Of a stretch of 64,000 bases of DNA, positions 9,916 through 13,248 are shown piece after piece (position 1 is the stretch's first letter; every line of letters starts with the position of its first letter). The translations under genes and the position numbers were made by a program. The notes under the pieces were generated by a model. The model did not search any database, was not told where the DNA came from, and saw only the letters and a program-made list of their open reading frames with translations. This stretch comes from Escherichia phage OES_C-1: sequence record PQ553088; one strand, given 5' to 3'.

Positions 9916-10479
9916 TTATTTACCTAGTTTACTTATTATAGCTTCTGCAGCAGCTTTTAGCTTAGATGCAGTGTTAATACGATTTTTAATTTCAGTATAC
10001 GCATCGCCAAGAACATCAAGGCTATCAGAATAAACACTTACACTATTGCGTTCGCTATTTGAAATAGAACCTTTAGTTTTGCGGTCAAAATCGGTGTACA
10101 CGTCTTGAAGATCGCGGGCTGCCTTCTTTGCATCATCCAATGCATCAAGAGCTTTATTCAAAGCATTAACGTATTTTTTAGTGTCGAACATATTCTTAGA
10201 AATTTTAACAGGTGCGCGTTCAGGAGTAGCTAACACAGATTTAGGAACCTGAGCGCCAGATGCCAATTTCTTAGAAATTTTGAAAAATGCTTTATTGAAT
10301 TTATTTTCTTGACTCATTGTAAAAGAACTATTATCGATGTTGTACATTTCAATAGCTTTAGCTTTCCACTTAAGAAAATCGCCGCGGTCTTTTGGGTCCA
10401 ATTGGAAGAATACTTTAGTAAGATCTGCTTCAGATGGTAATTTTGCTGCTTCGGTTAAAAATTCGGCATAGGTTTTCAT
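9916..10479 (-). CDS. internal protein (ipIII-like) with capsid-targeting leader
   Basis: 187 aa starting MKTYAEFLTEAAKL (IP-family leader). Confidence 0.65.
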   Translation of the reverse strand: MKTYAEFLTEAAKLPSEADLTKVFFQLDPKDRGDFLKWKAKAIEMYNIDNSSFTMSQENKFNKAFFKISKKLASGAQVPKSVLATPERAPVKISKNMFDTKKYVNALNKALDALDDAKKAARDLQDVYTDFDRKTKGSISNSERNSVSVYSDSLDVLGDAYTEIKNRINTASKLKAAAEAIISKLGK

Positions 10480-10604: not shown

Positions 10605-11078
10605 TCATTTGATTTGTTTAGCAGACCAAATGCGGTCTTTAATAATTTTTTGGATGTCTTCAACATACTCAAGAGAGTGAACATGTGGATTATCTTTGAA
10701 ACTATAAGCACGGGCTAACTTTTGGCCTTCGGTTTTGATTACTAAAAGCTCTTTAAGGATAGCTTCATATTTAGCGATAATTCCTTTAACGATATTTTTT
10801 TCTTGTGCCGCTTTAGGATCTGCTTTAGGAGCAGGTTTACCCGAAGCCTTTGCAAAAGCAGCGCCAGTAGCAACTAAACTTTTCCAGGCCATACTAACTG
10901 CATTTCCCGTAAATCCTTCCGCTTTCATGTCGCGTGCAAACTGGAATCGCGATTCATCAGAAGCATCTTTATAGGAATATTTACCCGCGGCAATGGCAGC
11001 TTTTGCAACAGCTTGAATTTCGGTGCTAGATGCTTCATTTAACACCGCTTCATTTAAAAATTGAGTATATGATTTCAT
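10605..11078 (-). CDS. internal-protein-family protein with capsid-targeting leader
   Basis: 157 aa from ATG at 11078 (MKSYTQFLNEA...), preceded by AGGAAAT; late promoter TATAAATA just upstream; track N-terminal extension rejected. Confidence 0.6.
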   Translation of the reverse strand: MKSYTQFLNEAVLNEASSTEIQAVAKAAIAAGKYSYKDASDESRFQFARDMKAEGFTGNAVSMAWKSLVATGAAFAKASGKPAPKADPKAAQEKNIVKGIIAKYEAILKELLVIKTEGQKLARAYSFKDNPHVHSLEYVEDIQKIIKDRIWSAKQIK

Positions 11079-11116
11079 CTTATTTCCTGTTTTAATTTGT
11101 AGATTTAATATACTAA

Positions 11117-11124
11117 TATTTATA
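11117..11124 (-). promoter_or_regulatory. late promoter (TATAAATA) for the IP-family gene
   Basis: Plus-strand tatttata about 40 nt upstream of ATG 11078. Confidence 0.5.
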
Positions 11125-11127
11125 CCA

Positions 11128-11157
11128 AAAAGCCCCAACCTTTCGGTCGGGGCTAAG
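11128..11157 (-). terminator. rho-independent terminator (copy 2 of the 30-nt repeat)
   Basis: Identical to 10571-10600. Confidence 0.65.
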
Positions 11158-11465
11158 CCTTGCGGCAACCTTGTCGGGGTTCCACCTGCTAAGGCAAGTG
11201 TTTGTACGAAACGCCGGGATTCGAACCCGGTTATTAAGTAGTTGACGCTACTCAATATTTTTAAAAGGCCATATCTCGACCATATCCGAACGTTCCGTCA
11301 AAAACGCTACTCGGCTTACGGCAAAGATATTTCCTCGAATCGATAATTCGGTGCGCCGTTTCTGCTGTGATGTAAGAGGGCATCAACAAATCATAAAGAT
11401 TTATTAACACGATTCCTTACCCAGGGAACATCAGTCCGACGACTTACCGGTAGCGACCCGGTTTC
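11158..11465 (-). ncRNA. candidate tRNA-like stable RNA(s), possibly equivalent to T4 species 1/2 RNAs (rnaC/rnaD)
   Basis: About 300 nt with no ORF in an otherwise gene-dense region; minus-sense T-arm-like CCGGGTTCGAATCCCGG with flanking CGGAACG/CGTTTCG acceptor-like pairing; ends at a strong terminator. Confidence 0.3.
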
Positions 11466-11816
11466 TTAATATTCTTTTAAAGAATCAATATATTCACGAC
11501 GTTTACGCCATAAATCAATTGCTTCATACGCAGATTCAGCATTTCGAATTGGACGGCATTTATATAAAGACTTATGATTTTGATATTGTGTAGATAACGG
11601 AATTGTATCTAAAAGGTCTTTACGATCAAAATATTCGTAACCATCTAAACCAAATGAACGATTTTTGAGAAATTGCCAATGACCATATTCGTTTTCGACA
11701 TAAACATAATCTGCATGCTGATAAAGCAAATTAATTAAGCGTTCAGAAATAACAGTGTCATTGTGATTAAAATAGAATGTTAAATCATGAACTACTAAAT
11801 AAACATTACCTTTCAT
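11466..11816 (-). CDS. hypothetical protein, 116 aa
   Basis: ATG at 11814-11816, directly downstream of tRNA-Arg. Confidence 0.55.
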   Translation of the reverse strand: MKGNVYLVVHDLTFYFNHNDTVISERLINLLYQHADYVYVENEYGHWQFLKNRSFGLDGYEYFDRKDLLDTIPLSTQYQNHKSLYKCRPIRNAESAYEAIDLWRKRREYIDSLKEY

Positions 11817-11833
11817 ATTTTCCTCACTTAATT

Positions 11834-11909
11834 GGTCGAGGCAGTAGGGATCGAACCTACGACCTAGGACTTAGAAGGTCCTTGCTCTTCCTTCTGAGCT
11901 ATGCCCCGT
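11834..11909 (-). tRNA. tRNA-Arg (anticodon UCU)
   Basis: 76-nt cloverleaf read by hand: acceptor CGGGGCA/TGCCTCG, anticodon loop CTTCTAA, T-arm GTAGG-TTCGATC-CCTAC, encoded CCA. Confidence 0.85.
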
Positions 11910-11911
11910 AA

Positions 11912-12577
11912 TTAAAATTTCATTTTTCGACCTTTAAACCATCCTTCTGGAATTGGGTCAGTTTTCTTAATACGTTTAGAAACTTTTTCATCTAATGAAT
12001 GAATCCACATCATACCAAATTGGGAATTCTTTTCTCCTTTCTGATGATTATTTTTAGCGTGAATTTCTTTCATTTTATTAATAGTTTCAGGAGTATGATG
12101 CTTATTTAAAAATCTGCTATTATTTAAAAATTTTTCCTTGTATTCAGGAGTTGACCACAAACGTTTAAATACATTTGAACCAATTTTACGATATTTTTCT
12201 TGAAGTAAAATATCATTTTCAAAACGTGATTTAAACGATTTAGCTCCTTTTAAACTAGCATCTTTCTTCTGGTTTAGCATCCCAGGAATATTTATATGGT
12301 CCCATCCACCTTCACCACCAAGTTTTAAATTATACACATCTGGTCTATTTAAAAACTCTTCTGTGACAATATTTTTCTCAGCTTCAAGCATAGATTCTTT
12401 ATCATCAAAATACTCTAATATTTCTTTAGAAAAATTTTCTATACCATACTTGTCTTGGGCTCTTTTTAATAATTTACCAGAACCCATATATCCATCATCT
12501 AAATTTTCGGTAGAATGCACACCAATATAAATTTTATTATTAATTTTATTTGTTATTTTATAAAGATAAAAATGCAT
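11912..12577 (-). CDS. segB: GIY-YIG homing endonuclease (SegB-like)
   Basis: 221 aa from ATG at 12577; YLYKITNKINNKIYIGVHST...GYMGSG GIY-YIG motifs; sits inside the tRNA cluster as SegB does in T4; track extension to 12619 would overlap a tRNA. Confidence 0.75.
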   Translation of the reverse strand: MHFYLYKITNKINNKIYIGVHSTENLDDGYMGSGKLLKRAQDKYGIENFSKEILEYFDDKESMLEAEKNIVTEEFLNRPDVYNLKLGGEGGWDHINIPGMLNQKKDASLKGAKSFKSRFENDILLQEKYRKIGSNVFKRLWSTPEYKEKFLNNSRFLNKHHTPETINKMKEIHAKNNHQKGEKNSQFGMMWIHSLDEKVSKRIKKTDPIPEGWFKGRKMKF

Positions 12578-12623
12578 ATCAGTCCCTAATAAAGAACTGA
12601 GCGTCTCACGACGAGTCATAAAT

Positions 12624-12697
<74 letters not shown>

Positions 12698-12703
12698 AAA
12701 TTT

Positions 12704-12789
12704 GGTGCGAGAAGTGGGACTCGAACCCACAAGGAAATCATTCCGCAGCATTTTAAGTGCTGTGCCTTTACCAATTTGACCATTCTCGC
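12704..12789 (-). tRNA. tRNA-Leu (anticodon UAA), class II with long variable arm
   Basis: Acceptor GCGAGAA/TTCTCGC, anticodon loop CTTAAAA, variable arm GGAATGATTTCC, T-arm GTGGG-TTCGAGT-CCCAC, encoded CCA. Confidence 0.85.
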
Positions 12790-12790
12790 G

Positions 12791-12863
12791 CTGGGAATAA
12801 AGGACTCGAACCTTTGCATCCTGGAATCAAAATCCAGTGCCTTACCAACTTGGCTAATTCCCA
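12791..12863 (-). tRNA. tRNA-Gln (anticodon UUG)
   Basis: Acceptor TGGGAAT/ATTCCCA, anticodon loop TTTTGAT, T-arm AAAGG-TTCGAGT-CCTTT; CCA not encoded. Confidence 0.8.
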
Positions 12864-12960
12864 ATTATTAACAAAGGCTCTCAAGCAAGAACCCTTGATG
12901 ATAGAGGGTATTAATCAGTGCGATATGAGTTAATAATAACAAATAATTCTTAAAGCATAT

Positions 12961-13248
12961 TTACCATTTATGATAATACATATTTACGATGCATTCAAGA
13001 CCCAAAGGATTCTTGAAAATATCATATTCAAGAGGACCTTTTTCCGTTTCAATAAAGAAATCAAAATTTACTGTATTAAATTTACGGTCTTCCTTCACTA
13101 ATTTAACTTGAGAAGATGAACGATCAATGTAAACCTTTTCAACTTCAAAACATGTTAAAATGCCATAATCATCAATCAAGGCTTTAGCTGCTTCTTGATC
13201 ATATTTATATCCATTTTCAATGGATGATACTTTCGCATAAAGAATCAT
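12961..13248 (-). CDS. hypothetical protein, 95 aa
   Basis: ATG at 13246-13248. Confidence 0.5.
   Translation of the reverse strand: MILYAKVSSIENGYKYDQEAAKALIDDYGILTCFEVEKVYIDRSSSQVKLVKEDRKFNTVNFDFFIETEKGPLEYDIFKNPLGLECIVNMYYHKW

Follow-up and report, generated by a model that had tools for sequence, protein, structure and literature searches.

In transfer-messenger RNA (tmRNA), the two ends of the molecule form an acceptor/T-arm module, and a structured insert with a loop-loop or pseudoknot contact takes the place of the anticodon arm of transfer RNA (tRNA). Other tRNA-like elements, namely the TMERs of gammaherpesvirus-68 and the mascRNA of MALAT1, are not aminoacylated; they recruit tRNA-processing enzymes and release a stable small RNA. 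Bacteriophage T4 has two small stable RNAs, species 1 and species 2, that have been known since the 1970s. In the T4 genome record (NC_000866) they are annotated as rnaC (species 1, positions 70908-71046) and rnaD (species 2, 71053-71171), directly 3' of tRNA-Arg. Both derive from transcription of the tRNA region, and their roles have been stated to be unknown (PMC3014915); both have been detected as late RNAs, with validation by northern blot (PMC9697503). Here, we describe an interval within a 64,000-nucleotide (nt) stretch, hereafter the window, of the T4-like (Tequatrovirus) genome of Escherichia phage OES_C-1 (PQ553088), which alignment identifies as the orthologues of rnaD and then rnaC. 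The finding is, to that extent, a rediscovery of a feature already known. Positions refer to the window, and features lie on the minus strand, as do the genes of this region, unless stated otherwise.

A blastn search with positions 11100-11500 as query against 50,697 phage records matched 802 of them, and in the records of phages RB68 and RB3 the match lies over annotated non-coding RNA genes, rnaD ('species II RNA') and rnaC. The rnaC orthologue, a tRNA-shaped RNA of 139 nt delimited by alignment (11205-11343), is identical to T4 rnaC at 138 of 139 bases over its full length, the sole substitution being C here for U66 in T4. The rnaD orthologue, of about 120 nt, was delimited by alignment to T4 rnaD, with its boundaries set by homology (11350-11469); positions 4-119 align with eight differences, two single-base indels among them (~93% identity). 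Relative to the 119-nt T4 RNA, the first 45 and the last 25 nt are kept and the hairpin layout is alike, while the base 3' of ...CACC is G here and A in T4. The two RNAs are separated by the spacer GAAUUA (11344-11349), and both the strand and the order of elements (rnaD, 6-nt spacer, rnaC, trailer, terminator) are those of T4, with rnaC at the 3' end of the tRNA cluster and on the same strand as the tRNAs. A first-pass annotation, made from the sequence letters alone, had proposed that positions 11158-11465 hold stable RNAs equivalent to T4 rnaC and rnaD beside the tRNA-Arg subcluster, a proposal borne out by these alignments and by the annotated genes of T4, RB3 and RB68.

The same annotation had suggested a search with covariance models, and the answer differed with the model. 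One built from rnaC homologues scores 153 bits (E ~1e-34) at 11203-11343 and has no second match in the 64-kb window, leaving rnaC as a single copy. A scan of 10900-13100 against Rfam 15, at E values up to 10, returned for 11158-11465 nothing but sub-threshold matches: tRNA-Sec at 17 bits (E = 5.7; gathering score 47), isrK at 16.2 bits (gathering score 50) and anti-hemB at 13.6 bits (gathering score 49.5). Neither rnaC nor rnaD is represented by a family in Rfam 15. The locus departs from that of T4 on either side. Upstream, T4 rnaD begins 2 nt past tRNA-Arg, whereas here an open reading frame (ORF) of 116 amino acids (aa) intervenes, as it does in RB68, T2 and SP1; this is a known variant of the locus and leaves the orthology of rnaD unaffected. 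Downstream, T4 carries e.8 where this phage has a 157-aa gene of phrog_2280. We regard orthology with rnaD and rnaC, biogenesis within the tRNA operon, the folds described below and a tRNA-mimic role, taken jointly, as the best explanation of the interval, with a probability of roughly 85%; the functional part by itself is graded separately and far lower.

Conservation with T4 continues for the 80 nt downstream of rnaC. The 3' trailer (11155-11204) is conserved in T4, RB3 and RB68 and contains a hairpin, CACUUGCC-UUAG-CAGGUG (11183-11200). Beyond it, a terminator scan found an intrinsic terminator that is conserved in T4, AGCCCCGACC-GAAA-GGUUGGGGCU followed by UUUUU (11126-11154), the hairpin of which (11131-11154) comprises 10 base pairs (bp), 7 of them G-C, and a GAAA loop. 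Trailer and terminator fold together with z = -4.1. The strong terminator that the first-pass annotation had placed at the end of the interval is thus present, just outside it, and forms the end of the tRNA/stable-RNA transcription unit.

Folded in the minus sense, as had been recommended, rnaC has a predicted minimum free energy (MFE) of -50.2 kcal/mol (z = -4.6 against shuffles), and the MFE fold agrees with the consensus fold of its homologues calculated by alifold. The two ends of the RNA are predicted to pair as an acceptor stem, the 5' strand being nt 2-8 (CGAUUCG, 11336-11342) and the 3' strand nt 131-137 (CGUUUCG, 11207-11213), which is followed by U-A(-C-A-A). Enclosed by this stem is a long arm (nt 9-78, 11266-11335; found by both MFE and alifold) with the apical hairpin GCGUUU-UUGACG-GAACGU. 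An A-rich stretch links it to hairpin 2 (nt 87-112, 11232-11257), which has a 10-bp stem and occupies the position of a tRNA variable arm, and a lone A precedes the T arm (nt 114-130, 11214-11230), CCGGG-UUCGAAU-CCCGG, whose 7-nt loop fits the T-loop consensus of the Rfam tRNA alignments. The sequence elements listed in the first-pass annotation, among them this T arm and the extra stem just 5' of it, are all found on the minus strand, and its remark that no canonical anticodon arm is present agrees with the silence of both ARAGORN and the Rfam tRNA model across 11158-11465.

The fold was tested on a 23-sequence MAFFT alignment (A3) and on 36 distinct sequences, drawn from more than ten T4-like genera, that had been fitted to the covariance model (A4). 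Standard pairs occupy 87.3% of cells in A3 and 91.8% in A4, as against 35-46% and 34-43%, respectively, in a control in which the 3' partners were slid by 1-3 columns. Changes on both sides are seen at 17 pairs in A3 and 19 in A4, and the covariation score was equalled by 0 of 500 shuffles in either alignment. Within A4, hairpin 2 has both-side changes in 9 of its 10 pairs and 94% of its cells paired, the apical stem of the long arm has double changes in 5 of 6 pairs, and the T stem is paired in 100% of cells with double changes in 2 of 5 pairs. In the acceptor stem, A4-U135 of Tequatrovirus and Gaprivervirus (13 sequences) is G4-C135 elsewhere (23 sequences), and two conserved tandem U.U mismatches become U-A and C-G in Tegunavirus, giving a full 7-bp helix there. 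Covariation supports a tRNA-shaped frame for rnaC, consisting of an end-to-end acceptor stem, a canonical T arm and two further arms.

Across the genera, the long arm is found in two versions of unrelated sequence that bear the same loop, and the versions are mixed within genera (Karamvirus VIPECLUMC02 versus EnC15; Moonvirus KM16 versus NM4.3). Past the acceptor stem the 3' tail is U-ACA-A in this phage, where Marfavirus has U-CCA-A and Tegunavirus U-UCA-A. In Winklervirus copies (the stretches denoted L010, L027 and L034), the T loop UUCGAAU is replaced by UGCAUCC, UGCAUUC or UGCAUC on a T stem that is kept. A direct repeat, GAGUAGCGU, has its upstream copy in the type-A long arm (11304-11312, rnaC nt 32-40), where it is invariant, and a second copy in hairpin 2 (11245-11253, nt 91-99), where it varies; the repeat may be the trace of a duplication. 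An alternative pairing of the repeat was rejected, the upstream copy having, by inspection, no co-variation with hairpin 2.

The two hairpins of rnaC appear to be joined at their tips. Loop 1, UUGACG, at the tip of the long arm (nt 43-48, 11296-11301), is the exact reverse complement of loop 2, CGUCAA, in hairpin 2 (nt 97-102, 11242-11247), and all six pairs can form in each of the 36 distinct sequences. Only two of the positions vary, and they do so on both sides: loops of the Marfavirus type, UUGGCG/CGCCAA, carry an A-U to G-C double change, and those of the Tegunavirus type, UUGAUG/CAUCAA, a C-G to U-A double change, with no one-sided change at any loop-loop pair in the 36 sequences. The loops remain the same even where the long arm has been exchanged for unrelated sequence. 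The 6-bp duplex is worth about -5.5 kcal/mol, and freeing both loops would cost 0.2 kcal/mol. Because the loops are exactly complementary in every sequence, with compensatory double changes in two lineages, we predict that they form an intramolecular kissing loop. In the rnaC of Enterobacter phage EnC15 (L026, 1203-1343), the loop-1 region is complementary to hairpin 2 over a longer stretch, of 15 nt (AAAGUAGUUGACGCU / AGCGUCAACUACUUU); owing to this extension, its MFE fold replaces the two hairpins by a long-range helix.

Like canonical tRNAs, and class II tRNAs with their long variable arm in particular, rnaC has an acceptor stem of 7 bp stacked on a T stem of 5 bp that bears a GGUUCGAAUCC loop, a hairpin directly 5' of the T arm, and the placement and spacing of a tRNA gene within arrays. 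It departs from canonical tRNA in having tandem U.U mismatches in the acceptor stem and in lacking a D arm, an anticodon arm and an encoded CCA (except for U-CCA in Marfavirus), and it escapes the tRNA searches mentioned above. With tmRNA it shares an acceptor/T-arm module made by the two RNA ends and a structured insert with a loop-loop contact in the place of the anticodon arm. It differs from tmRNA in its much smaller size and in the absence of the G3.U70 alanine identity pair, a tag reading frame and CCA; for the interval, ARAGORN called no tmRNA and Rfam gave no tmRNA match. The TMERs and mascRNA are eukaryotic (RNA polymerase III, RNase Z) and have no sequence relationship to rnaC, and the analogy with them is functional only.

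When searched for alone, rnaC matched 747 phage records, with at least 99% identity in 417, 95-99% in 263 and a more divergent copy in the other 67. For rnaD, 735 phage records matched, only 18 of them at 99% or above and 87 in the 60-80% band; rnaC is much the less variable of the two across matched records. Divergent copies of rnaC were found in Karamvirus, Kagamiyamavirus, Moonvirus, Tegunavirus, Gelderlandvirus, Winklervirus, Kanagawavirus, Marfavirus and Gaprivervirus and in phage Ursula, and in none of the records fetched from the genera with such copies is it annotated as an RNA. In most of the annotated ones it stands between tRNA genes (for example Trp-rnaC-Gly and Phe-rnaC-Trp); it lies within tRNA arrays in Karamvirus, Kagamiyamavirus, Winklervirus, Gelderlandvirus and phages Ursula and COW86c, and in phage Marfa it closely follows tRNA-Met on the downstream side. 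In these other genera the CCA of the preceding tRNA is ~5 nt from the start of rnaC, ~8-10 nt separate the end of rnaC from the tRNA that follows, and the spacers ahead of it, AAUUA and AAUCAA, are of the same length and type as GAAUUA here.

Among the fetched records, rnaD was found in Tequatrovirus, Dhakavirus and Gaprivervirus only, and the remaining genera have rnaC without it. Dhakavirus phages JS98, 005 and C6 show the opposite arrangement: rnaD is present and rnaC is precisely absent, as the covariance model confirms. In JS98 and 005 the 3' end of rnaD is fused to the CACUUGCC...CAGGUG trailer hairpin, with a few extra bases in between in C6. Because Dhakavirus keeps rnaD without rnaC and other genera do the reverse, rnaD and rnaC are, judging from these genomes, separable and independent modules.

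Outside the phages, the rnaC motif pattern had 0 matches in 185,579 bacterial and archaeal genomes. A metagenome scan with the rnaC pattern gave a single match (L028), unconfirmed by the covariance model. Of 13 matches in IMG/VR to the pattern GTCAACT...HGGTTCGAATCC, nine (L015-L024, except L022) are chance matches on which nhmmer and the covariance model were silent.

The annotation of the locus is uneven. In hundreds of records a 'hypothetical protein' is marked over the rnaD/rnaC stretch. In Marfavirus records a 45-aa coding sequence (CDS) is annotated over rnaC (L029, 827-964; L025, 1516-1653), with a ribosome-binding site (RBS) in phages Marfa and EI; in our reading these calls were prompted by an invariant GAGGA near the 5' end of rnaC.

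The second RNA, rnaD, has a different architecture. A 5' hairpin, ACCGG-GUCGCUA-CCGGU (11446-11462), with 5 bp and an invariant 7-nt loop, is predicted in 16 of 16 distinct homologues, its closing A-U pair being G-C in three sequences and G-U in one. There follows a long irregular hairpin closed by the conserved segments GUCGUCGG... and ...CGGCGCAC. The 5' and 3' segments of rnaD are conserved among homologues, the tip of the long hairpin is hypervariable, and the middle of this hairpin comes in three unrelated forms (T4-like, T2-like and Dhaka/Gapriver-like). As modelled, rnaD is not recognisably tRNA-like; the tRNA-like elements attributed to the interval at first pass are a property of rnaC only. 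We considered a tRNA-like acceptor at the 3' end of rnaD (...GGCGCACC) and discarded it, the inspected folds showing no complementary 5' strand, and intermolecular pairing between rnaD and rnaC was no better than in shuffles, 46 of 300 of which paired as well. On the plus strand, the reverse complement of the 5' hairpin together with TTTCTT (11446-11462) scores as terminator-like, and this site is probably incidental.

A published evolution experiment bears on rnaD. When phage BW1 was evolved on Escherichia coli ECOR34, a single convergent single-nucleotide polymorphism (SNP) arose in all lines, and it lies in rnaD (PMC12685909, 2025). The change (record position 164264, T to C; position 405 of the BW-1 stretch L049, OR125554) corresponds to rnaD nt 76, A to G in the RNA sense, and to ~11391 in the window. 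With it, the apical hairpin CACAG/CUGUG known from T2 (T2-type) regains its C-G pair, and the predicted MFE of rnaD falls from -25.9 to -31.0 kcal/mol. The SNP provides indirect evidence that rnaD depends on its structure on some hosts. The report of that work (PMC12685909) appears to place rnaC upstream of rnaD, which by our mapping is the reverse of the order of transcription.

Several other explanations of the interval were weighed. It could be nothing but a diverged promoter/terminator spacer without a functional RNA, and the missing Rfam family and the lack of annotation over this stretch in many genome records agree with that. However, in 680 of 747 records rnaC reaches an identity of 95% or more and its helices covary strongly, and a neutral spacer is excluded by this conservation and covariation; in addition, sigma-70-like promoters are not in excess (8 found versus 9.0 expected), and the RNAC and RNAD of T4 have been seen on a northern blot (PMC9697503). 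We give this explanation practically no weight. Hardly more credible is a small protein encoded by the 49-aa ORF with a GTG start (11261-11410), in spite of its match to phrog_24262 (E = 1.7e-36), the 'hypothetical protein' entered here in many records and the Marfavirus CDS with its RBS. The ORF is not conserved: its start codon is lost in most homologues, and 1-nt indels, stops or start loss affect it in T4, RB68, T2, SP1 and BW-1. It also spans two separately annotated RNAs, and substitutions within it follow the compensation of RNA helices. On these sequence comparisons, the most satisfactory explanation of phrog_24262 is a set of mis-called ORFs over rnaD and rnaC.

Other alternatives accept an RNA and dispute its nature. 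As a tRNA pseudogene decaying around an insertion and kept by its seat in a tRNA array, rnaC would owe its acceptor stem and T arm, its location inside arrays and its weak tRNA-Sec match (17 bits, E = 5.7) to its ancestry, and the window does contain a genuine tRNA remnant (12627-12697). Decay is, on the other hand, difficult to reconcile with a molecule in which the non-tRNA parts are the most constrained, with loops that are invariant or co-vary and a hairpin 2 that covaries in 9 of 10 pairs, which is near-identical in hundreds of genomes and spread over more than ten genera, and which accumulates as a stable RNA in T4 (PMC9697503); we consider the pseudogene very improbable. The first-pass annotation had drawn the tRNA-like part differently, confining it to the 3' 93 nt of rnaC, with CGGAACG (nt 47-53, 11291-11297) as the 5' acceptor strand and the first 46 nt as a leader. 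That strand does form a perfect 7-bp helix (with one G.U) with CGUUUCG (11207-11213) in Tequatrovirus, 78% of cells are paired over 23 sequences, and the weak tRNA-Sec match shares its register. The helix nevertheless shows no compensatory change in those sequences; pair 49-135 is broken in 18 of 23, whereas pair 4-135 covaries and assigns the 3' strand to nt 2-8. In Tegunavirus and all type-B long arms it is severely disrupted, it cannot form together with the apical hairpin and the kissing loop, and the annotated mature T4 RNA contains the 5' 46 nt. As the native fold it seems to us quite unlikely; it could be a minor alternative conformer in Tequatrovirus. A somewhat better case can be made for rnaC and rnaD as cis-acting modules for processing or stability of the tRNA operon (nuclease entry, 3' protection) with no role as free RNAs, given their position in Tequatrovirus at the operon 3' end, adjoining trailer hairpins and terminator, and the tRNA-like spacing of rnaC. 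Yet in most other genera rnaC is internal to arrays in which the tRNAs already supply processing signals, each RNA is found without the other, a nuclease entry site needs no conserved kissing loops, and both RNAs accumulate as discrete late species (PMC9697503), so that we also judge this account unlikely.

The surrounding region was examined for tRNAs and coding content. ARAGORN called only tRNA-Gln (12790-12863), tRNA-Leu (12703-12789) and tRNA-Arg (11833-11908) on the window; these are the only intact tRNAs of the cluster, which lacks tRNAs Pro, Ser, Thr and Ile of T4. A remnant of tRNA-Gly (12627-12697) is nearly identical to T4 tRNA-Gly over ~56 nt at its 5' side, the 3' T-stem and acceptor strand being replaced; it scores 27.8 bits with the Rfam tRNA model, under the gathering score of 29, and is not called by ARAGORN. 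Between the remnant and tRNA-Arg lies a GIY-YIG homing endonuclease ORF (11912-12619), identical to T4 SegB at 216 of 222 aligned residues, which starts at 12619, a few bases beyond the remnant. The 116-aa ORF (phrog_3355, 11466-11816) fills the space between tRNA-Arg and rnaD, and its TAA stop codon overlaps the 5' end of rnaD. RB68, T2 and SP1 carry an equally long ORF at this position, which T4 and RB3 lack, and in Karamvirus VIPECLUMC02 a phrog_3355 gene likewise adjoins the tRNA array.

Beyond the terminator is the 157-aa gene (phrog_2280, 10605-11078, with its ATG at 11078). A Pfam search of the flanking 116-aa and 157-aa proteins found no family, and so gave no support to the 'IP-family' label that the first-pass annotation had put on the downstream gene. 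The adjacent genes 9916-10479 and 10605-11078 have similar N-termini (MKTYAEFLTEA... and MKSYTQFLNEA...), and neither has a significant Pfam family. The description of the interval as ORF-free is correct in substance, although a mechanical list gives three ORFs there: one of 34 aa on the plus strand, the 49-aa GTG ORF and a 216-aa ORF with a TTG start (10605-11255) that overlaps the 157-aa gene. We read the last as a putative upstream extension of that gene, because the gene starts at ATG 11078 and matches phrog_2280 from its first residue.

For the orthologues of rnaD and rnaC, the layout suggests a simple route of biogenesis. Both would be co-transcribed with the tRNA operon and then excised; co-transcription is the most likely course because they share the strand of the tRNA genes and close the cluster at its 3' end, just upstream of the terminator. 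An acceptor/T-arm helix is the minimal substrate of RNase P. The 5' end of rnaC would be cut by this enzyme and the 3' end trimmed by nucleases, and the enzymes of tRNA maturation most likely make both ends because the acceptor stem, the T arm and the spacing of rnaC are all tRNA-like. In the mature RNA, the 7-bp acceptor stem would stack on the T arm, the long arm and the 10-bp hairpin would replace the D, anticodon and variable arms, and the kissing loop would lock the molecule into a compact shape. The tRNA-like half would, in this scheme, supply excision and stability. Our tentative proposal, which we would not press, is that rnaC mimics a tRNA without decoding, and in this way occupies or titrates a host or phage protein recognising tRNA, and that rnaD is an independent accessory RNA with a hairpin structure that affects fitness on particular hosts. 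More speculative still is a general version, in which rnaC would represent a widespread, constrained, phage-specific class of tRNA-shaped RNAs acting as a decoy or regulator of a tRNA-recognising factor, such as a defence nuclease of the host that attacks tRNAs or an enzyme of tRNA processing or modification, and rnaD a separate RNA that modulates host range, a role hinted at by the convergent BW1 SNP, which restores structure.

A number of observations weigh against the joint explanation. Only two independent compensatory events speak for the kissing loop, and four of its six pairs never vary and are hence uninformative. The U.U mismatches leave only 73% of the cells of the acceptor stem paired, and Winklervirus copies of rnaC have a non-canonical T loop (UGCAUCC). 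Aminoacylation of rnaC seems unlikely because the annotated mature T4 RNA ends in ...GUA, without CCA. All boundaries of rnaD and rnaC in this phage were set by homology, and because the 116-aa ORF separates rnaD from tRNA-Arg, the 5' end of rnaD cannot form as it does in T4. As for the function proposed for rnaC, T4 mutants in which a deletion removes the tRNA region are viable on laboratory hosts.

These results also expose a problem of annotation, in that spurious 'hypothetical proteins' and one PHROG have been placed over rnaD and rnaC, for which there is no Rfam model. For rnaD, the published adaptive SNP of BW1 can now be read as the restoration of a hairpin. For the T4-like phages at large, rnaC emerges as a conserved and unannotated member of the tRNA arrays of many genera, the function of which has become more testable, since the predicted kissing loop could be broken and then restored by two point mutations.

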